Virus record (IMG/VR): IMGVR_UViG_3300045971_000356
Coordinates: 64,001-128,000 of that record
Reading direction: 5' to 3' (one strand)
DNA: 64,000 nt
From: a virus
Made by a program: the position numbers and the translations under genes. The notes under the pieces are model-generated. The model worked only from the letters and a program-made list of their open reading frames with translations, was not told where the DNA came from and did no database searches. Every line of letters begins with the position of its first letter. Within the stretch, counting starts at the first letter, position 1. Positions 6,204-50,244 of the stretch are shown one piece after another.

Positions 6204-6794
6204 TATCTTGCATGTAAAATGTTTATGGTGAGATCTTATTCCGTTAGAAACTGAACACATTGATCCAGTGTCTAAATTGAAATCTCTGCATATTTGCGCT
6301 AAATTTTTAGTTACAATAACTTCCCCGCTTGGGGTTGTTACCTCATAATATCGTGCTTTACGCAATAAAAATTCAGGATCATTCCATTTATGTTTATTAC
6401 ATTGAACCATTTTATTTCGATATTCAGGATTTTGCCATTGCCTCTTACTTGCTTCGGATATCAACAATTTAGTTTGGGCAGCATGTGATGTATCTTTATG
6501 CGACCCACCTCGCGTGAGATTATATCCAGCAGTATGATGAGAATCAACAAACGTATTATACTCAGATATAAAATGTGGTTCCATTATGTTTAATGTGTGC
6601 CATTTATCGAGTGATTGATATAGGATGTCAAATTGAAAATTATTTATTCCATATTTTTGGATGGCTTGATATATTGCTTGCTTTCTCTTAGATCTTTTGT
6701 GATACAACATCCTCTTGGTATAGTTGCTGGTAAAACCAATGTAACTCTTATTGTTTAATAAGTTAGTTATCTTATAGATAGTATAAATATTCAT
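6192..6794 (-). CDS. GIY-YIG homing endonuclease
   Basis: TIYKITNLLNNKSYIG, GYNLTRGG and C-terminal HTH-like region. Confidence 0.88.
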   Translation of the reverse strand: MNIYTIYKITNLLNNKSYIGFTSNYTKRMLYHKRSKRKQAIYQAIQKYGINNFQFDILYQSLDKWHTLNIMEPHFISEYNTFVDSHHTAGYNLTRGGSHKDTSHAAQTKLLISEASKRQWQNPEYRNKMVQCNKHKWNDPEFLLRKARYYEVTTPSGEVIVTKNLAQICRDFNLDTGSMCSVSNGIRSHHKHFTCKILTT

Positions 6795-6849
6795 GCTGAT
6801 TGTCCTTCACGACGTTAGAGTAGTTGGAACCGCCAAGTTCGCGAACTAC
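6795..6849 (-). ncRNA. Candidate structured leader RNA of GIY-YIG gene (copy 1)
   Basis: GUAGUU-cgc-GAAC-loop-GUUC-c-AACUAC-UCUAAC-GUC-gugaag-GAC-aaucagc-AUG; covaries with the copy at 49564-49617. Confidence 0.7.
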
Positions 6850-6863
6850 ATAAATATATTTAT

Positions 6864-7538
6864 GTGTATCAATTATTTGGGAAAATTATAGTGGAAGTTT
6901 CCATTGGTGCCTTATACAAGGAAATGCTACGGCTGGCGGTAATAACGCCAGTTGGAGTTGAGTTTACTGTGGCAGAATTTACTAAGATTTTGCGGAATTA
7001 TTCCGCAACGTCTGAAGTAAGAGTAGTATCTGCCCGGCACTCCGAGGTTGATTTTAACCAAATCGTAATCACAGGCGAGTATGATCCGTTTGACGACGAG
7101 TCAGGCTTACCTGCAATTACAATTACAGTACATTACTCGCCAAAACAAAAAACTATCAAGTTTGCTGACATAGACTGGCCGCAAGTTTGTATAGATTTAA
7201 TTGAGTGTACTGGTCACGAGGTCATCCATCGTCAGCAGTACAGGAATCGTAATTTTGAAATTCCTGAGTTGATTTTTGCAAGTAGGAGCAAAGAGGGCAA
7301 AGCAAAAGAGATTCAAGAGTATCTCGGTAACGTTGACGAAATTGAAGCACACGGCTACAGCATAGCAGCAGAGGTATTTTTAAAGTACCAGCCTAAACGA
7401 CTCAATGTCACCAACGTAAAAGACAATCTTATCTTTAAAGCATACGTGGCTGCGTTTGGTAGAAATCACCACATAGTTAAAAAACTTATAAAATATTCAC
7501 TGACTTATTTTGAATTTCTACACGAGGGGAAAGTATAA
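6864..7538 (+). CDS. Putative zinc metallopeptidase-like protein
   Basis: GHEVIH (HExxH) and YLGNVDEIEAHG. Confidence 0.55.
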   Translation: MYQLFGKIIVEVSIGALYKEMLRLAVITPVGVEFTVAEFTKILRNYSATSEVRVVSARHSEVDFNQIVITGEYDPFDDESGLPAITITVHYSPKQKTIKFADIDWPQVCIDLIECTGHEVIHRQQYRNRNFEIPELIFASRSKEGKAKEIQEYLGNVDEIEAHGYSIAAEVFLKYQPKRLNVTNVKDNLIFKAYVAAFGRNHHIVKKLIKYSLTYFEFLHEGKV

Positions 7539-25177: not shown

Positions 25178-25585
25178 ATGGCATATGTTTCTGCAGAACT
25201 TAAAGCAAAATTGGCCCCAGCTGTCAAGGCAGTGCTGAAAAAGTACAAAATGAAGGGCTCGTTGGCTGTGCGTAACCACTCCACCTTAGTGTGTAACGTC
25301 AAGTCCGGTCCCATTGACATCATCGGCAACATGTTTGACAAAGCAGTCAATGAGCCCGGCACCCACTACAACCGCAACCCGGTTAAACCCACTTACATTG
25401 ACGTAAACCCGTACCACATTGCTAACAGCTACAGCGGCAAAGCGCAAAAGTTTTTGCTTGAACTGAAGGCTGCGATGGACAACGGCAACCACGATAACAG
25501 CGACATCCAAACTGACTACTTCGACGTTGGTTGGTTTCTAGATATAAATATCGGAAGTTGGGACCGCCCATATATGGTGGTTTAA
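25178..25585 (+). CDS. Conserved phage early protein
   Basis: DNSDIQTDYFDVGW...IG.WDRPY; SD GGAG. Confidence 0.75.
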   Translation: MAYVSAELKAKLAPAVKAVLKKYKMKGSLAVRNHSTLVCNVKSGPIDIIGNMFDKAVNEPGTHYNRNPVKPTYIDVNPYHIANSYSGKAQKFLLELKAAMDNGNHDNSDIQTDYFDVGWFLDINIGSWDRPYMVV

Positions 25586-26232
25586 CTTTTAAATTTGCAG
25601 TTGTCGCCATGATATCGATTTATCATATTATGCGACACTTCCTTTTTACAATGGATGCAACATACACGCATTTTAGGAACTCCTGAAAATACTGTCGTAT
25701 TTTTTGCAGATAATTTTTTGCTAACTTCAACGCTATGTTTTTTGTCGTAAAATGGATTATTGCTGCCAGCACACATTCCCTTTCTATTTGCAGATATTTT
25801 TTCTTTAGTCGCTGCTGAATGGCGTTTGCCAAACATGTTGTTTTTGCTGCCTTGTGCCCGGATACTCATATTTTGCTTCCATGTGTCAGTAAATGGATTT
25901 CTTTTGCGGCCAGTGTATGTTTTTGACAATTCTGCCCGCAAATAAGCGTATACTCTGCTAGTAACTTTGCCAGAAAATTTAAATGATCTCGACTGTTGCC
26001 ATGCCGCGTATACCATTTTATGTTTAACCGTAGCATCAACAAATCGGATTAGCAGTAAATGGCAAATAAAATGTTCGCGGAGAGTCAACGCAACCAGATT
26101 GCTGCTACTGTTTTTGCCGCCAAGGCTTTTAGGAATTATGTGGTGCCTATCGTATGGTTTTTCAAGGGTTCGCTCTTTGGCACGAGCAATAATATTTTCG
26201 TACCATTTTAGATATTTGTTTTGGGTAAACAT
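25582..26232 (-). CDS. HNH homing endonuclease with NUMOD3 motifs
   Basis: RHHIIPKSLGG, LTLREHFICH and MFGKRHS. Confidence 0.88.
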   Translation of the reverse strand: MFTQNKYLKWYENIIARAKERTLEKPYDRHHIIPKSLGGKNSSSNLVALTLREHFICHLLLIRFVDATVKHKMVYAAWQQSRSFKFSGKVTSRVYAYLRAELSKTYTGRKRNPFTDTWKQNMSIRAQGSKNNMFGKRHSAATKEKISANRKGMCAGSNNPFYDKKHSVEVSKKLSAKNTTVFSGVPKMRVCCIHCKKEVSHNMINRYHGDNCKFKS

Positions 26233-31207: not shown

Positions 31208-31951
31208 TTATTTCATACCTCGCAACCAGCCCAATGAAATAAGTTGGTTAGCGTCTGCTTTTGGCAGTAGTTTGTTTTCTAAATGATTGTGAACCCATAA
31301 TTTCTCTTGCTTGGCAACAGTAGGGCCAGCCCCGAATTTCCAACCACCAGCCAAATATGGCGAACACTCAGTGAAATGAATATATTTTCTATCGCCAGTG
31401 GCAGGATTATGAACCCAACGTTTTGTAATATTCGCGAGACTGTGTTTTTTAGATTTTTCTGGGCTGCACGGTGAGCGAACATTGTATAAAGGATTGTTTT
31501 CAGATGCCCGCAATTTTCTAGTAGCGGACATTTTAGCTTTTTCAACAGCAGTTCGCGGGATTCCTTTATTCCAAACAATTTGATTTTTTCGTATTTCACG
31601 CATTGCGATATAGTCGCGCGACGATATTTTATACCGCTGTTGATTTTTGTTTACTATAGATAACGCAGTGAATGCTATTTTCATTTTTGCTTTCGCAGTT
31701 CCCTCGACCATTTTGGGTAATAATTTATGGCAAACATAATGCTCGTGGGCAGTCAACTTAACTATATTGTTTTTGTCATTTGCGTTTCCCTCGACCCATC
31801 CCGCTGGCCCTTTTCTTTTACGATGTTTGAAGAAAGATTCAGGAATAATATGATGCCTTTCGTAATACGTAGTCTTGTCAATTACCCTTGACTTTGCGGT
31901 AAGCATAATGTTATTATACCAGTTAGAATATTTGTTGTTATTGAAGATCAT
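31208..31951 (-). CDS. HNH homing endonuclease
   Basis: YERHHIIPESF, LTAHEHYVCH, WNKG and WVHN...GW..G repeats. Confidence 0.85.
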   Translation of the reverse strand: MIFNNNKYSNWYNNIMLTAKSRVIDKTTYYERHHIIPESFFKHRKRKGPAGWVEGNANDKNNIVKLTAHEHYVCHKLLPKMVEGTAKAKMKIAFTALSIVNKNQQRYKISSRDYIAMREIRKNQIVWNKGIPRTAVEKAKMSATRKLRASENNPLYNVRSPCSPEKSKKHSLANITKRWVHNPATGDRKYIHFTECSPYLAGGWKFGAGPTVAKQEKLWVHNHLENKLLPKADANQLISLGWLRGMK

Positions 31952-33783: not shown

Positions 33784-34853
33784 TGTCAACAAATATAAAA
33801 ACAGTAGCAGCAGATTTAACTGATTCATTTTTTAAAGATTTACAAAAGCAAATTGCTAAACAAGTCAATGATGACATCGCACACAAGTTAGCACACATTG
33901 ATATTAATCAAACAGTTCGTGAATGTGTTGACTATACAATTAAAAAGCAATTAACAGAGTTACGGTTCCCACCAAGCAGTATCCCTGGTGACGCTATTAA
34001 AATTGACACACTGCGTATTGTTGGTGAGAATGTTTATGGCGGGACACATAAATTATTCATGAGTACTGGTATTCAAGACACCGCGTCTGAGTGCCAGATT
34101 ACAATCTTAGATTCCGCTACTGTTATAGAGAATACGCTCATTGCTAAAGACGCAGAGATTAAAGGCGACCTAACAGTGGATGGAGTGTTGAACGTCACTG
34201 GAGAAATATCTCCTGACTCACCCTTTTACAAAGAGTTAGTTGAGCACTCAGCTGGGTTAGTTCGCTTGTCGTTAAACGACGATTTTTTTAAACAGTTTTC
34301 TAAAACAGTTTTTGAACAAATTAAAGAGCAAGGCATTGATTTAACTAAATTAACGCTCAACGGTTCTCCTATTATTACTGGAAGCGAGCTAAATCGTTCT
34401 ATTGTTGAATCAAGTTTACGCACTGTAGGTAACTTGAAAACTTTAGTTGTTGATGGTGACACAACCATCAACCAAGAAACACTTAACATTGGTATTCGCC
34501 GTGTTGGTATCAACACAACAGAGCCACAGGGTGCGTTTGAAGTTTGGGATGATGAGTGCGAGTTTTTAGTTAAGAAACAGAAGAAAGACACTATGATGTG
34601 GGGCACAACGCGACCTCACGATGTAGTGTTAAGCAGCAACAATAAAGACAACCTTGTGTTAAACTCTGACGGCAGCGTCACAGTGGCAAAAATTGCTGTG
34701 GGTAATACTACAATGTCAAGCAGCGATGCGCGGCCAGCGTATGCTGCAAAGCGTGGCACAATTGTCTGGAACACAAATGCTGATGTCGGACAACCCATCG
34801 GCTATGTTTGCGTTGGTGGAGCAAACTGGGGTTCTTTTGGTGAAATTAGTTAG
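33783..34853 (+). CDS. Putative virion structural protein
   Basis: SSLRTVGNL, RVGINTTEP and C-terminal GTIVWN...GYVC...W..FG. Confidence 0.6.
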   Translation: MSTNIKTVAADLTDSFFKDLQKQIAKQVNDDIAHKLAHIDINQTVRECVDYTIKKQLTELRFPPSSIPGDAIKIDTLRIVGENVYGGTHKLFMSTGIQDTASECQITILDSATVIENTLIAKDAEIKGDLTVDGVLNVTGEISPDSPFYKELVEHSAGLVRLSLNDDFFKQFSKTVFEQIKEQGIDLTKLTLNGSPIITGSELNRSIVESSLRTVGNLKTLVVDGDTTINQETLNIGIRRVGINTTEPQGAFEVWDDECEFLVKKQKKDTMMWGTTRPHDVVLSSNNKDNLVLNSDGSVTVAKIAVGNTTMSSSDARPAYAAKRGTIVWNTNADVGQPIGYVCVGGANWGSFGEIS

Positions 34854-35407
34854 TCTATAGTAAATTTATTGTTCTTTTGCCTATTGTCAGTTCGAGGGAT
34901 TACTTGTAAGTTAAATTCACAATGCAATCCACACACTAACTTGTGGTTTGATGGAACAATGTGGTCTACTTCGTGTGGCACACCAGTCTCAATAGATAAT
35001 TGACGAGCTTTGGTGTAAAACTCTAGTATTTTCTCTTTACTCGCCCACGGTGGCATAGATTTATCACGCTTTTTCCTTCGATTTACTATATAAGCACTCC
35101 ACTCAGCTTTACGCTGAAACACTGATTTACTGGGTGGCCGTTGGAATTTAGTGACGTTATATTTTCGCTTAGGTTTACTTATTTTTTCTGGCAATGGCCC
35201 GACAAAAGTTTTCAAAAATTCTCGTCTATTCTTGCCATATTCAATAAAATCTTCTTTAGTTTTATTTGGCTGATCTAATGTGCCGTGCCGCAATTTTGCT
35301 GAATATATCCCTTGGTGGCTTTTACAGCAGCAAGACATTCTCCATCCAGCAACGGGCCTATCGCATCCAGGTAGCTTGCAAAACTTAGGTTCAAATATAG
35401 TAGTCAT
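34850..35407 (-). CDS. HNH endonuclease
   Basis: EVDHIVP...VCGLH...NLQVI...N..K.N. Confidence 0.88.
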   Translation of the reverse strand: MTTIFEPKFCKLPGCDRPVAGWRMSCCCKSHQGIYSAKLRHGTLDQPNKTKEDFIEYGKNRREFLKTFVGPLPEKISKPKRKYNVTKFQRPPSKSVFQRKAEWSAYIVNRRKKRDKSMPPWASKEKILEFYTKARQLSIETGVPHEVDHIVPSNHKLVCGLHCEFNLQVIPRTDNRQKNNKFTID

Positions 35408-35773: not shown

Positions 35774-35941
35774 ATGATGATGTTATTCTTTATGTCCAAA
35801 ATAGCTGGACTAATATCCCCTGTTTCAAGACAGACAGAATTAGACAGGTATATTAGCTCAAAAAATCCGCAAACTGCCGCTGATGTAGAATATTACATCA
35901 AGCAGTATGATGAAGAACAACGAAGGAAATTTATATGGTAA
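35774..35941 (+). CDS. DUF3563-like small protein
   Basis: ELDRYI...ADVEYYIKQYD pattern. Confidence 0.45.
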   Translation: MMMLFFMSKIAGLISPVSRQTELDRYISSKNPQTAADVEYYIKQYDEEQRRKFIW

Positions 35942-36037
35942 TGATTGCACTACGCTCAATTTGGCGCTTCTTAGCGAAAGCTGGAGAAGCGCGATACGAA
36001 AAATACAAACGTAATCCACAGGCATACTGGTACTAAG

Positions 36038-36123: not shown

Positions 36124-36333
36124 ATGGGTTACAAAGCAGTTCGTGAAGTGGATAACATGCGTGACACTTACGGCTTCCGTCAGGGACTTGAAGGCCCGTT
36201 TTCATTCTCTGGGCGAGTGCTGTATTACGATACTCGCGAAGGAAAATATTATGACCCGCGGACTGATTGGTATATTGAACAGGACGAGATGAACGCGATC
36301 AACCAGCGTTTGACTGATTTACTTGCTTCTTAG
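36124..36333 (+). CDS. Conserved small early protein
   Basis: GLEGPF...GRVLYYD..EGKYYDP.TD.Y. Confidence 0.75.
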   Translation: MGYKAVREVDNMRDTYGFRQGLEGPFSFSGRVLYYDTREGKYYDPRTDWYIEQDEMNAINQRLTDLLAS

Positions 36334-36889
36334 CAGCCATGGTGGCGCGGAAAGATTCTAATTTTTTCTGCTTTTGCTCTTCAGATTGTGTATAACCTTT
36401 CTTTTTTGGTTTACCCAAATGCGCTGCGGCTATTTTGGCTTTAGTTTCTTCCGTATGGAACTCTGGGCACCCAGCAGGTTTCTTCCTTCCTTTGAATTTC
36501 TCACTGAGGAACAGTTTTTGCTCGGCAGAGCATGGTTTCATAATTTGGGTAGCCCTTGCTGCTTTAATTTTTTCCCTTGTCTCAGGTGTGTGCGTCCGGC
36601 CATACATTCCGTTTTTTGCCCCTTTAAGGCAATTGCCGTCCCCGCCGTCAGTTTGGTTTTGTAAAATTCCAGTGCCTAAATCTTTTCTACCATATTTTGC
36701 GATAAGTTCCTTTTCCATGGACTTAGCAGTATCGTCACTTAGTCCTTCAGCTAAAATTACAATTCTGGCTGTATCCGCAGGCAAATGTATGCGGTGTCTG
36801 CCAGACCAGGCTCGACGGCCTTTGCCTTTTCCAATATAATACGGTGATCCGTCTTCGCGTAAATAAGCGTAAGTGTAATAGTTGTCCAT
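36299..36889 (-). CDS. GIY-YIG homing endonuclease with NUMOD3
   Basis: YTYAYLREDGSPYYIGKG, NQTDGGDG and MYGRTHTPET. Confidence 0.88.
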   Translation of the reverse strand: MDNYYTYAYLREDGSPYYIGKGKGRRAWSGRHRIHLPADTARIVILAEGLSDDTAKSMEKELIAKYGRKDLGTGILQNQTDGGDGNCLKGAKNGMYGRTHTPETREKIKAARATQIMKPCSAEQKLFLSEKFKGRKKPAGCPEFHTEETKAKIAAAHLGKPKKKGYTQSEEQKQKKLESFRATMAAKKQVNQSNAG

Positions 36890-47692: not shown

Positions 47693-48120
47693 ATGTTTTC
47701 AGAATCAAGATTCAAGCATTATCAAACAGGAGATGCAATCATTGATGCTCACCATCGTAATATTTTATCGTTAGCTGATGATACAATGGAACATTTGATT
47801 AAATGGAAAGAATGCTTTACTGCTAACTGTCAATGCCAAGTTAACAATGTAATTCAAAATTTTATTGATGCACTAACTGATCATATCAATGAAGAAAATA
47901 AATTCATGGATGACAATTTGTTTCAATATAGGGACATACATAAGAAAATTCATGAGCATTTTCTTATAGACGTTAAAAAGCAGTAGAATTTTATCAAAAC
48001 TCAAGAGAGTCTGCCACACATGTTCAACATAAGTTGTATAAGTTAGTAGAACTATATTACTACCATATTGATAATTATGACTTGCAAATGGTACAGTGGA
48101 TTAAGGAAAATAAAAAATGA
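47693..48120 (+). pseudogene. Hemerythrin-like gene with a frameshift near 47975-47980
   Basis: TG...ID.HH, H...E..FM and H...H; the -1 frame supplies HIDNYD and ends in an ATGA overlap with the next gene. Confidence 0.7.
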
Positions 48121-48809
48121 TGACAGAAGTATATGTTCGTAAAATGGCATCTATTCAAAAGATTGCCGAAGTAAAGGCTATTCCTGATGCAGATAAAATC
48201 TGTGCCTACCGTGTCAACGGGTGGTGGATTGTTGACCAAGTCGGCAAGTACGTCGTGGGCGATCTCGTTGTGTACGCAGAACCAGATTCATTCATCCCGG
48301 CCACACTTGCACCTTTCTTGACAAAGCCAGGGCATTTTCCCAAGACGTATCTTAGTGTTGAAGGTGAAAAACTTCGAACTATCCGTCTGCGCAAGCAATT
48401 GTCTCAGGGACTGTTGCTGCCGCTAAATGTTGTGTTTGATGCCATGACGATGGAGCAGCGTTTGATTGCTGGCTCTGACGAGCTGATTGAAGGTACTGAT
48501 GTATCTGAAACACTGAATATCGTAAAGTGGGAAGCACCACCTGAGTTTACCTCTGCTGATGCTCGTGGATCATTTCCATCGTTCATCATCAAGACTGACC
48601 AAGAACGTGTGCAAAATTGTTTCGCCGATATGGAAGAACATTTTGAGCACCAAACATGGGAAGTTACAGAGAAGTGCGAAGGCTCTTCAATGACTGTGTA
48701 TTTCCGAGATGGTGATTTTGGTGTCTGCAGCAGAAATTTAAATTTACTTGGAACTAAGTTTTTGCCATTTTCTTTTGATGATGAGCAAGTTGAAGATAAG
48801 ACTGTCTAG
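48117..48809 (+). CDS. RNA ligase (DRB0094/Rnl5-like), N-terminal fragment
   Basis: RKMASIQ, IPDADKI, SQGLL, KTDQERVQN, motif I TEKCEGSS and GVCSRN. Confidence 0.85.
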   Translation: MMTEVYVRKMASIQKIAEVKAIPDADKICAYRVNGWWIVDQVGKYVVGDLVVYAEPDSFIPATLAPFLTKPGHFPKTYLSVEGEKLRTIRLRKQLSQGLLLPLNVVFDAMTMEQRLIAGSDELIEGTDVSETLNIVKWEAPPEFTSADARGSFPSFIIKTDQERVQNCFADMEEHFEHQTWEVTEKCEGSSMTVYFRDGDFGVCSRNLNLLGTKFLPFSFDDEQVEDKTV

Positions 48810-49563
48810 TCCGATTTAAATGATTGACTGTCATTACCTTTCGGTCGGATAGTCTACTACACAATAATTTGGCTGGGACGTTGGTTTTCTTATTGTTAAC
48901 CCAACGATTGAACTCCATAAGTCTCATCACCTTTTTATCTATTAGTCTAGAAACATAAGTGATGTGCTTAGTTACACAGGCAAGTTTAGCGGATTTTGAT
49001 TGAAGCTTTTTAGTTTCTGTTGATCTTTTACTACCATAATTTATACCCACATAGTTAGAAAGAGTTGGGTCATCTTTATGAATTCTAAAACAAATACCTG
49101 TTTTATTATCCTTTACTGTAATCCAATTCTTTTGACTATTTGATATATTTTTCTTGTGAGATTCACTAATGCATTTTCCAGTTTGGAAAGATACTAACTC
49201 TCCAGAAATATAACGAGGATCATTAACAGATACCCTAAACATAACACCAGTAGAATCTTTTACTACAACTAGATTTTTATTTGTGGGAGGATTTCCACCA
49301 AAAGATTTATTTAGTAATAATGGATGTCCCCAATGTTCTTTAATAAGATTTTGTTCAAAGTCGTTTGCATCTTGTGATTCATAAAATACCGCTAAAATTT
49401 CATAATTATAATTGTCAAAATTTGGTTTTACAATTTTAGATGATGTCTTGTAAACAATTCCCAAATCAAATTCTGCTGGTACTTTATTTGCTTTCCTAAA
49501 ACCAAAATAAAATTCCGATGTTGTTTTATGAGTACACTTGTATACGTAGGGATAAATATTCAT
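48754..49563 (-). CDS. GIY-YIG-type homing endonuclease inserted within the RNA ligase gene
   Basis: MNIYPYVY...FYFGFR, YKTSS, FEQNLI and LLN; start reassigned to 49563 from SD and leader motif. Confidence 0.82.
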   Translation of the reverse strand: MNIYPYVYKCTHKTTSEFYFGFRKANKVPAEFDLGIVYKTSSKIVKPNFDNYNYEILAVFYESQDANDFEQNLIKEHWGHPLLLNKSFGGNPPTNKNLVVVKDSTGVMFRVSVNDPRYISGELVSFQTGKCISESHKKNISNSQKNWITVKDNKTGICFRIHKDDPTLSNYVGINYGSKRSTETKKLQSKSAKLACVTKHITYVSRLIDKKVMRLMEFNRWVNNKKTNVPAKLLCSRLSDRKVMTVNHLNRTRQSYLQLAHHQKKMAKT

Positions 49564-49617
49564 GCTGGCATTCCTTTCAATGTTAGAGTTCATGGGTGTT
49601 CCACCACCGCGATGAAC
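49564..49617 (-). ncRNA. Candidate structured leader RNA of GIY-YIG gene (copy 2)
   Basis: GUUCAU-cgc-GGUG-loop-CACC-c-AUGAAC-UCUAAC-AUU-gaaagg-AAU-gccagc-AUG. Confidence 0.7.
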
Positions 49618-49624
49618 ATTTTTA

Positions 49625-49653
49625 TTGACACATATTAAACAATGTGTTATAAT
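49625..49653 (+). promoter_or_regulatory. Sigma70 promoter for the RNA ligase C-terminal fragment
   Basis: TTGACA-17-TATAAT. Confidence 0.8.
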
Positions 49654-49686
49654 ATATTTATCATATTTAATGGAAGTTTGGAAATT

Positions 49687-50244
49687 ATGATTGAAATTAT
49701 TTCAAAAGATCAATTAGCAACATTACACATTGGTGACAAATTCATATATCGAGGAGCTGAGTATGTTGCTCAGTCGGAACCATACGAAAAGAATGGTCAA
49801 ATTGGTGTAGATGTAGATACAGACAATACGTTCTGGAAGATGGCACTTGAACTTGGTTTGAGGGAAAAGTTGACTAATGAAGGGTTAAACATTGCTATTC
49901 AAGGTGAACTATGTGGCCCTGGTATTCAAGGTAACATTTATAACTTGAGCAAGCACATGTTCTTTGTGTTTGATATTTTTGATATTGATCGTTTTGAATA
50001 TATTGTACCAAAATTGCGTAGAGATATCACTAAGGCTTTTGGGTTAACTGATGCACCTGTGCTTGAATGTGAAGCAACATTGTCTGGTCAAACATGCGCG
50101 TCACTGCTAAATAAGGCAGATGGGCACTCTGTGCTTGGGCTAATTGGGTGTGCTCGTGAAGGTCTTGTCTTCAAGGCAAATTCTGACAGGCGAATTTCAT
50201 TCAAAGCAGTTAGCAACAAATATTTAGAAAATATCAAAGATTAA
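49687..50244 (+). CDS. RNA ligase C-terminal fragment with an extra N-terminal segment of about 45 aa
   Basis: DNTFW, motif III QGELCGPGIQGN, FVFDI, motif IV REGLVFK and motif V SFKAVSNKYL. Confidence 0.85.
   Translation: MIEIISKDQLATLHIGDKFIYRGAEYVAQSEPYEKNGQIGVDVDTDNTFWKMALELGLREKLTNEGLNIAIQGELCGPGIQGNIYNLSKHMFFVFDIFDIDRFEYIVPKLRRDITKAFGLTDAPVLECEATLSGQTCASLLNKADGHSVLGLIGCAREGLVFKANSDRRISFKAVSNKYLENIKD

Follow-up and report, generated by a model that had tools for sequence, protein, structure and literature searches.

A structured leader that is real and widespread in uncultured T4-like phages precedes homing endonuclease genes of several unrelated families, and three scans of IMG/VR together recovered at least 261 distinct leaders in at least 249 loci. 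On the endonuclease strand, A·C oppositions are common in its helices and G·U pairs almost absent, which indicates that selection maintains these helices on the strand complementary to the endonuclease mRNA. We think it close to an even chance that the element is bounded by two convergent late promoters, of which the antisense one would give rise to an RNA of about 65 nt complementary to the endonuclease 5′ untranslated region (UTR).

Two copies in the window and their relatives

The window, a stretch of 64,000 nucleotides, comprises bases 64001-128000 of the 166-kb IMG/VR record IMGVR_UViG_3300045971_000356, whose phage encodes rIIA, nrdA and NAMPT genes. It holds two copies of the element, A and B, ahead of endonuclease genes on the minus strand (Table 1), and on re-reading of the sequence both sites match the letters given in a preliminary description of this DNA.

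Table 1. Positions, strands and supporting evidence for the parts of the two copies, numbered from the first base of the window.
Feature	Position	Strand	Basis
Copy A ATAAATA, late-promoter motif for the endonuclease mRNA	6863-6857	-	sequence
Copy A main two-tier hairpin, GTAGTT-CGC-GAAC-TTGGCG-GTTC-C-AACTAC	6849-6820	either	folds, covariation, A·C without G·U on the minus strand
Copy A TCTAAC	6819-6814	-	sequence
Copy A Shine-Dalgarno mini-hairpin, GTC-GTGAAG-GAC	6813-6802	-	sequence
Copy A AATCAGC	6801-6795	-	sequence
Copy A start codon ATG	6794-6792	-	sequence
Copy A second helix	6795..6819	+	fold.(((((.(((......)))))))), family-wide antisense stability
Copy A predicted antisense late promoter, TATAAATA	6782..6789	+	sequence; motif and register as in the sense promoter
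Copy A predicted antisense RNA of ~65-69 nt, two adjacent hairpins and tail	6795..6863	+	MFE -14.1 kcal/mol, fits the family structure
Copy A GIY-YIG homing endonuclease gene, 200 aa	6192..6794	-	PF01541, PHROG homing endonuclease, ORF map
Copy B main two-tier hairpin, GTTCAT-CGC-GGTG-GTGGAA-CACC-C-ATGAAC	49617-49588	either	sequence, folds
Copy B TCTAAC	49587-49582	-	sequence
Copy B Shine-Dalgarno mini-hairpin, ATT-GAAAGG-AAT	49581-49570	-	sequence
Copy B GCCAGC	49569-49564	-	sequence
Copy B start codon ATG	49563-49561	-	sequence
Copy B second helix	49564..49587	+	fold.((((((((......)))))))).
Copy B predicted antisense late promoter, GATAAATA, from endonuclease codons 2-5, predicted +1 at G 49564	49551..49558	+	sequence
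Copy B predicted antisense RNA, two hairpins then AUUUUUAUUGAC	49564..49629	+	fold
Copy B sigma-70 promoter (TTGACA, 17 nt, TG-TATAAT; perfect 12/12)	49625..49653	+	promoter match
Copy B nearest minus-strand ATAAATA	49661-49655	-	sequence
Copy B homing endonuclease gene, 269 aa when counted from MNIY	48754..49563	-	PHROG homing endonuclease

The main hairpin of copy A is composed of a 6-bp outer stem, one central pair set between two invariant bulged bases, and an inner stem of 4-5 bp. The adjoining second-helix segment consists, on the minus strand, of UCUAAC, a 3-bp Shine-Dalgarno mini-hairpin and AAUCAGC; on the plus strand it forms a single longer hairpin (GCUGAU...GUUAGA), the loop of which contains the Shine-Dalgarno complement. 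The ATAAATA of copy A sits in a perfect 14-bp palindrome, ATAAATATATTTAT (6850-6863), and its bases make up, on the plus strand, the A/U-rich tail behind the main hairpin. The main hairpin would be transcribed both ways: late endonuclease mRNA would have it at its 5′ end, and in the plus-strand RNA it would be terminator-like. The endonuclease gene itself runs antisense to both of its plus-strand neighbours.

In copy B, the second-helix segment folds on the plus strand into an unbroken 8-bp hairpin (GCUGGCAUU-CCUUUC-AAUGUUAGA), and only a 4-bp Shine-Dalgarno mini-hairpin is predicted for it on the minus strand; the plus-strand RNA has an MFE of -17.4 kcal/mol (z = -2.2) and the minus-strand leader one of -13.7 (z = -1.0). 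The associated endonuclease, for which a Pfam search returned no match, is encoded within an RNA ligase gene that is split into halves at 48117-48809 and 49642-50244, and the sigma-70 promoter, directly behind the hairpin and U-tract, is directed at the 3′ half of that gene. Both copies had been placed downstream of ATAAATA, which holds for copy A; the sequence abutting the copy B hairpin is CAATAAAAAT, and the nearest ATAAATA lies 37 nt upstream, so that this hairpin would not be the 5′ end of the endonuclease mRNA. The stems differ between the copies at all six outer-stem and three of the four inner-stem positions and nevertheless pair throughout, just as had been claimed.

A covariance-model search of the 166-kb record found six copies, every one on the minus strand, of which five precede an endonuclease-like ORF and one precedes a 9-codon remnant; an orphan leader without an endonuclease gene is located at genome positions 35916-35973. 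In this genome, the model matches the hairpin at endonuclease cassettes only and never at other gene ends, and in T4-like genomes from metagenomes such a model would flag endonuclease cassettes together with their late promoters and correct start codons. Two of the IMG/VR scans were one-sided. The first used the downstream motif alone (TCTAAC..AGG..CAGCATG), and the same two-tier hairpin is found upstream in about 105 of 124 hits among the matches listed; the second used one hairpin sequence alone, and nearly all of the matches listed are preceded by ATAAATA and followed by UCUA..Shine-Dalgarno..CAGC. The two halves of the element therefore predict one another.

Nearly all leaders among the matches listed fold singly into one common architecture. 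In a structure-blind MAFFT alignment of 94 leaders among the matches listed, which were pre-filtered for five of the six outer-stem pairs and unfiltered for the inner stem, central pair and Shine-Dalgarno stem, 90.9% of cells pair compared with 68% after shuffling, 358 double-sided changes are seen compared with 120 in shuffled and 27-46 in slid controls, and all 15 modelled pairs covary. The two bulged C's are invariant in these 94 leaders, which were found without the hairpin as a query. The element is therefore a covarying structured RNA, as first proposed, far beyond what chance would produce.

The comparison with Rfam that had been suggested at the outset gave zero matches (Rfam 15 at gathering thresholds, whole window, both strands), and permissive E-values at both sites yielded noise only, the highest score being 20.9 bits where the gathering score is 80; these null results also argue against known small ribozymes. 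Megablast and blastn searches of GenBank phages with both loci and a typical leader gave zero matches, the covariance model found no credible match in Synechococcus phage B3 (Kyanoviridae), Vibrio phage 2.275.O or Sinorhizobium phage phiN3, tblastn with the copy A endonuclease returned distant relatives only (at most 40% identity), and a literature search for the stem sequences retrieved unrelated primers only. With at least 261 distinct copies and none in Rfam, the element would, if our reading holds, add an abundant structured-RNA family to phage biology. A role as an RNase III site was considered and is in our judgement unlikely, the helices being too short (12 bp).

The leader had been described as a feature of GIY-YIG genes that travels with them. 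It does behave as a portable unit and stands ahead of unrelated endonuclease families, and the restriction to GIY-YIG has to be dropped: among the matches listed, the ORFs behind the leaders belong to GIY-YIG (PF01541), to HNH (PF01844, PF13392) and to families without a Pfam match, and many carry NUMOD3 motifs.

Mismatch types and the strand of selection

The strand on which the helices are selected can be read from their mismatches, which were counted in 179 leaders among the matches listed, picked so that neither mismatch type was favoured. On the endonuclease strand of these 179 leaders, the non-pairs of the outer stem are 31 A·C, one G·U and one A·A, and the central pair is G-C in 130, A·C in 30, A-U in 17 and G·U in none. 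Among the matches listed, A·C exceeds G·U by 61 to 1 in the outer helix and by 28 to 8 in the inner stem. Pairing between UCUAAC and CAGC was scored in 124 units found with a hairpin-only pattern (among the matches listed) and runs, from the outside inward, C-G in 124 of 124, U-A in 123, A·C in 121 of 122 and then Watson-Crick or A·C; on the endonuclease strand, this second helix totals 677 Watson-Crick pairs, 167 A·C and one G·U. Since A·C on one strand is G·U wobble on the other, such helices evolve via wobble intermediates on the strand opposite the endonuclease mRNA. More generally, a ‘leader’ that is read on one strand may, by this asymmetry, belong to the other.

UCUAAC and CAGC, which had been taken for invariant single-stranded segments, are instead the arms of one helix that closes only on the opposite strand. 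There, GCUGAU...GUUAGA forms an 8-bp hairpin with an invariant G·U and a loop containing CUCCUU (anti-Shine-Dalgarno), whereas the endonuclease strand keeps just a Shine-Dalgarno stem of 3-5 bp. In the 124 units among the matches listed, the mean MFE of the second-helix segment is -6.9 kcal/mol as antisense and -2.9 kcal/mol as sense RNA, the antisense form is the stabler one in 122, and RNAalifold gives the same alignment -19.2 as reverse complement and -13.2 as sense. An antisense alignment of 146 units among the matches listed, including both window copies, has 94.5% of cells paired (80.1% shuffled) and 430 double changes (111 shuffled, at most 63 slid), with almost no non-pairs left in the outer stem and central pair; counted on this strand, the first antisense helix has 167 G·U-equivalent and one A·C-equivalent oppositions (124 units among the matches listed). 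An invariant A·C on the sense strand leaves the ribosome-binding region of the mRNA open and the antisense RNA folded, which suggests that both RNAs matter. Cis-regulation, as envisaged in the preliminary description, remains the best reading, but the regulator is probably an antisense RNA and not a folded sense leader.

Late-promoter motifs on both strands

ATAAATA behaves as a late promoter in this genome, with 46 of its 85 sites in intergenic DNA, which makes up 9% of the genome, and 41 of the 85 at most 60 nt upstream of a same-strand ORF; control heptamers behave otherwise. For T4-like cyanophages, S-PM2 among them, NATAAATA late promoters have been documented (PMC2984593). Many minus-strand genes are leaderless (TAAATA-N4-6-ATG), placing the transcription start about 6 nt past the motif. 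At the leaders, TAAATA is found at most 30 nt upstream of the hairpin in 169 of 179 units and at most 6 nt upstream in 164, and it ends 3-5 nt before the hairpin in 161 (5 nt in 105, 4 nt in 15 and 3 nt in 41; all among the matches listed). With the 5-nt spacer, the predicted start is the first base of the stem; with the 3-nt spacer, it lies inside the stem.

It is on this side that a sense-only structured leader, the kind of reading given in the preliminary description, would find its evidence. A 5′-terminal hairpin could shield the late endonuclease mRNA from 5′-end-dependent decay, the Shine-Dalgarno hairpin could damp translation, and the bulges and linker could form a protein-binding site. 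The 5-nt spacer in 105 of 179 units (among the matches listed), with the start calibrated by the leaderless genes, fits this reading, as do the independent folding of the sense hairpin and Shine-Dalgarno mini-stem in nearly all copies among the matches listed and the invariance of the bulged C's in the 94 leaders among the matches listed. We nevertheless regard it as unlikely. It leaves the tolerance of A·C and near-absence of G·U unexplained (61:1 in the outer helix, 167:1 in the second helix) and gives no role to the frame-independent TATTTA and the A-rich spacer described below. Also against it, the start would fall inside the stem in 41 of 179 units (among the matches listed) and the copy B promoter stands 37 nt upstream; the geometry of an ompA-type stabiliser, in which the hairpin begins 0-2 nt from the transcript 5′ end, is predicted for the 105 units whose start is the first stem base.

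Both window proteins do begin MNIY and are otherwise divergent (28% identical over 89 aa), but MNIY, put forward as a shared protein feature, is a by-product of the nucleotide motif T-ATT-TAT. Leader-borne ORFs among the matches listed start with MxIY, MYL, MIFI or MLF, the last three being what the motif encodes when read in other frames. Also among the matches listed, the third base of codon 2 is T in 172 of 178 ORFs (34% T at other third positions), codon 3 is ATT, ATA or ATC in a ratio of 139:8:1 (42:42:16 % across the rest of the ORFs), and codon 4 is TAT in 148 and TAC in 17. The TATTTAY motif is kept 4-6 nt after CAGC whatever the reading frame: in 124 units among the matches listed, TATTTA starts 5 nt past CAGC in 94 and 4-6 nt past it in 111, in all three frames. 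It is found in none of 110 leaderless late genes of the same contigs, including 14 with endonuclease-like N-termini. As TATTTAT is the reverse complement of ATAAATA and independent of frame, the shared MNIY follows from it.

Read on the opposite strand, these codons hold a second late-promoter motif. Upstream of GCUG, the antisense base frequencies among the matches listed are A.65, T.83, A.87, A.97, A.86, T.82 and A.81, followed by N4 and T.91, and they mirror, in identical register, those upstream of the hairpin on the sense side. In copy A, TATAAATA on the plus strand corresponds to endonuclease codons 2-5 (AAT ATT TAT A), with a predicted +1 at G 6795. The motif overrides endonuclease codon usage, and an antisense promoter imposed on the codons would explain why unrelated nucleases have their first residues in common.

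The same motif could, however, act within a sense transcript, by the temporal control known from T4. In transcripts reading through from upstream, AUAAAUA would pair with UAUUUAU (codons 2-4) and close a three-way junction over the Shine-Dalgarno and AUG, and transcripts from the late promoter would lack the 5′ arm and hence be translated; such control could co-exist with an antisense RNA. Established examples of such control are I-TevI, segB, mobE, gene e and soc (PMC2988022; PMC3014915), and it accounts equally for the frame-independent TATTTA and its absence from leaderless genes, which reach promoter-only translation by another route. Across 136 units among the matches listed, the pair probability of the closing helix averages 0.47, and in 49% of them it is above 0.5. 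However, seven A-U pairs closing a multiloop make a marginal helix and its two arms show no compensation: no clear covariation links the base that precedes TAAATA with the last base of codon 4 (G/C 3/11 versus A/C 13/125, among the matches listed). The endonuclease gene is antisense to both neighbours in 88 of the 124 units with both called, and co-directional in 36 (among the matches listed), so that sense read-through should be rare, and TATTTA is kept no better in the co-directional units among the matches listed. As the A·C/G·U asymmetry and the A-rich spacer also go unexplained, we consider this account improbable.

The A-rich spacer brings the argument back to an antisense RNA. Among the matches listed, A makes up 58% of the first three spacer bases beside the hairpin, whereas the leaderless late promoters found on the same contigs have 31% (Fisher p = 3e-15), and the opposite strand consequently reads ACUUUUAUUUA straight after the hairpin. 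The tail there is U-rich, of the form A(C/U)UUUUAUUUA, with A-C preceding the U run, and copy B and other units that have no sense promoter next to the hairpin retain AUUUUU(A/G)UUGAC at this place. Because the tail opens with A-C and that of copy A, AUAAAUAUAUUUAU, is a poor U-tract, termination may be weak. A simple terminator scanner reported nothing at either hairpin, for which the single-base bulges may be the reason.

The tail could also belong to a plus-strand structure without a promoter of its own, serving flanking genes as a terminator or 3′-end stabiliser in the manner of a PeSL (see below). The selection of the helices on the plus strand and the U-rich tail next to them agree with such a role, as do the 12/12 sigma-70 promoter directly behind the copy B hairpin, the 88 of 124 units (among the matches listed) that are antisense to both neighbours, and the persistence of the orphan leader at 35916-35973. 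Against it, the A·C bias is identical in the 36 co-directional units among the matches listed, where a terminator would be polar on the genes downstream; the mirrored ATAAATA at a fixed distance from GCUG is left without a role; and the model hits in this genome are confined to endonuclease cassettes. A flanking-gene function of this kind thus appears doubtful. Across the two orientation classes among the matches listed, A·C bias, TATTTA retention and the A-rich tail are alike, so that orientation cannot separate the models. An element acting as DNA (as a cruciform, as a signal for recombination or homing, or as a protein operator, marking the end of a mobile cassette) is very improbable, since the extensive compensatory change and free stem sequence argue for a single-stranded fold and not an operator, and a cruciform would treat the strands alike whereas the mismatch spectrum is strongly one-sided, although the element does sit at the cassette 5′ boundary common to unrelated endonuclease genes and four of the six copies in this genome share an identical outer stem.

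Under the reading with two convergent promoters, the element would serve the free-standing homing endonuclease genes (GIY-YIG and HNH) of uncultured T4-like phages as a portable expression cassette that works on both strands, bounded at either end by a late promoter of the form (N)ATAAATA-N4-T-G. From the endonuclease-strand promoter, the mRNA would begin on or close to the base that opens the main hairpin; from the opposite-strand promoter, which is written in endonuclease codons 2-4, transcription would begin at the G that lies opposite the final C of CAGC. The predicted antisense RNA would begin with an 8-bp hairpin formed by the complements of CAGC/AUCAGC and UCUAAC, the CUCCUU loop of which complements the endonuclease Shine-Dalgarno, and would continue with a single A, the bulged main hairpin and the U-rich tail, together serving as an intrinsic terminator; this tail would come from the opposite strand of the sense promoter and its A-rich spacer. 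As a full complement of the endonuclease 5′ UTR, the RNA would pair with it, probably via complementary loops, and hold translation down. The modest z-scores of single sequences (-1.4 to -2.3) count against this reading, and the folding of the sense hairpin in nearly all copies among the matches listed leaves room for a function on the sense strand. The arrangement would be a compact case of overlapping coding, with a promoter within codons and a terminator tail within the opposing promoter. As both promoters are late-type, a regulatory logic of capping dose rather than setting timing is conjecture. A further pairing, of the C of UCUAAC with the base that lies 2 nt ahead of the stem, was considered and dropped, as it clashes with the better-supported C-G of the second helix.

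Comparison with known regulatory elements

To our knowledge, the tight regulation of T4 homing endonucleases has so far been traced only to sense-strand hairpins and autorepression, and the convergent-promoter reading would, if true, add an antisense-RNA layer to it. In I-TevI, segB and mobE of Aeh1, hairpins mask the ribosome-binding site, and an internal late promoter bypasses them, whereas in seg43(25) of Aeromonas phage 25 a hairpin lies upstream of the ribosome-binding site without sequestering it (PMC2988022). The phage element shares with these genes a late promoter and a structured 5′ region, and its main hairpin is non-sequestering as in seg43(25), ending 6 nt before the Shine-Dalgarno stem. 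In contrast to I-TevI, segB and mobE, the Shine-Dalgarno is held in a stem of 3-5 bp only (segment MFE -2.9 kcal/mol) and the substitution signature is that of the opposite strand. The late promoter also differs in position, lying 3-5 nt upstream of the main hairpin and outside its 5′ arm; it could lie in the 5′ arm of the putative AUAAAUA/UAUUUAU helix, which has a pair probability of 0.47 and no compensatory change.

Hairpins in 15 of 16 endonuclease 5′ UTRs, with TATAAATA in ten of them, have been reported for fractured genes at environmental phage-like loci of the Global Ocean Sampling data (Dassa et al. 2009, PMC2677866). That report describes free-standing GIY-YIG and Vsr-like genes, complementary motifs, and a hairpin kept where the endonuclease gene is lost, and it reads the hairpins as sense translational attenuators (PMC2677866). 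By description, these hairpins may belong to the same family as the phage element; covariation, a second helix, an antisense promoter and strand asymmetry were not reported for them (PMC2677866). Another precedent is CfrI of S-PM2, a T4-like cyanophage, in which this antisense RNA of 225 nt overlaps a homing endonuclease gene (Millard et al. 2010, summarised in PMC2984593). CfrI resembles the proposed RNA in being antisense to such a gene in a phage that also has NATAAATA late promoters; it differs in its length of about 225 nt and in linking the endonuclease gene to psbA, and gave no sequence or model match.

The element also has features of the PeSL (promoter-early stem-loop), reportedly described by Arbiol et al. 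in 2010 as mobile regulatory cassettes of T4-type phages. Like a PeSL, it is a stem-loop beside a promoter that moves with mobile genes, and copy B has on its plus strand a hairpin, a U-tract and a perfect sigma-70 promoter. Unlike in a PeSL, the adjacent promoter motif is late-type and oppositely directed in 169 of 179 units among the matches listed, and, among these matches, a sigma-70-type early promoter directly follows the stem-loop only in copy B and possibly in the few units with GTCAAYAAAAAT upstream of the hairpin.

IS10/Tn10 RNA-OUT, the partner of RNA-IN, and P22 sar are bulged antisense stem-loop RNAs of about 65-70 nt with convergent promoters tens of bases apart, and RNA-OUT caps the translation of IS10 transposase. 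The predicted antisense RNA resembles these, or a type I antitoxin, by analogy: it would be complementary to the mRNA of a selfish or dangerous gene, at the 5′ end and the ribosome-binding site, and a promoter motif on the opposite strand near the target 5′ region, as expected of cis-encoded antisense repressors, is present at the sequence level. In contrast to IS10 and P22, both promoters of the phage element would be of the T4 late type, the antisense one would lie within the opening codons of its target, the terminator tail would double as the promoter of the target, and several unrelated nuclease families are served. That each free-standing endonuclease gene carries its own RNA-OUT-like repressor, with the promoter in the first codons of the nuclease and a tail that is the nuclease promoter, and that these RNAs could act in trans among cassettes, is a tentative proposal that we hold at somewhat short of an even chance. 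The near-identity of the leaders, with the same outer stem in four of the six copies of this genome, means that the antisense RNAs could act in trans, which would amount to copy-number control of selfish nucleases inside one phage genome.

Cassette variant with an upstream start codon

In two further cassettes of the record (see table), the hairpin is unchanged and the start codon lies two codons before CAGC (AUG UCC AGC). The CAGC-N5-TATTTAT arrangement is kept in an IMG/VR unit of the same type (L152), and leader copy C has TACTTAT, a one-mismatch form of TATTTAT, so that the antisense RNA predicted opposite the endonuclease mRNA would span the AUG of the variant too.

Orphan leader and cultured relatives of endonuclease A

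One intact leader stands alone: both the endonuclease gene and the TATTTA motif are absent after it, and a 9-codon ORF comes next. In the cultured phages Synechococcus phage B3 (L330), Vibrio phage 2.275.O (L331) and Sinorhizobium phage phiN3 (L332), the nearest relatives of endonuclease A are antisense to both neighbours, as endonuclease A itself is, and the leader is absent from all three. In phiN3, the relative is located between two ORFs, each annotated as a recombination endonuclease subunit.

Surroundings of copies A and B

The promoter region of copy A (window 6850-6863) is a perfect 14-bp palindrome, ATAAATATATTTAT, and ATAAATA is thus present on both strands; two late promoters may stand back to back here. 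At copy B, the endonuclease gene interrupts an RNA ligase gene, leaving two ligase ORFs, and a perfect sigma-70 promoter is found directly past the hairpin, oriented toward the second half.

Features of the leader loci and of leaderless-type genes
Feature	Position	Strand	Remarks
Orphan leader	genome 35916-35973 (L128:1501-1558)	minus	promoter, hairpin, UCUAAU, Shine-Dalgarno stem and CCAGC all intact
Variant cassettes	genome 40629-40686 (L130), 148759-148819 (L129)	minus	precede YYVYAY..YYIGKG-type GIY-YIG genes
ATAAATA, second copy	window 6850-6856	plus	7 nt before plus-strand ORF 6864-7538
RNA ligase, first ORF	window 48117-48809	plus	carries the OB fold and Pfam profile residues 2-33 of the ligase
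RNA ligase, second ORF	window 49642-50244	plus	residues 40-171 of Pfam profile
Sigma-70 promoter	window 49625-49653	plus	12/12, with extended TG
Leaderless-type genes	window 25582-26232, 31208-31951, 34850-35407, 36299-36889	minus	TAAATA 4-6 nt before start
Leaderless-type gene (MEPFKPTWL...)	genome 131228-132124	minus	TAAATA 4-6 nt before start

Late genes of apparently leaderless type

On the minus strand, many late genes, including several for HNH or GIY-YIG endonucleases, carry TAAATA 4-6 nt before the start codon and have no Shine-Dalgarno sequence. Their transcripts look like leaderless late mRNAs. The MEPFKPTWL... gene is a paralogue of a leader-bearing gene (genome 22411-23079, MSIYKPTWL...), and 110 ORFs of the leaderless type were counted in the leader-bearing IMG/VR contigs among the matches listed.
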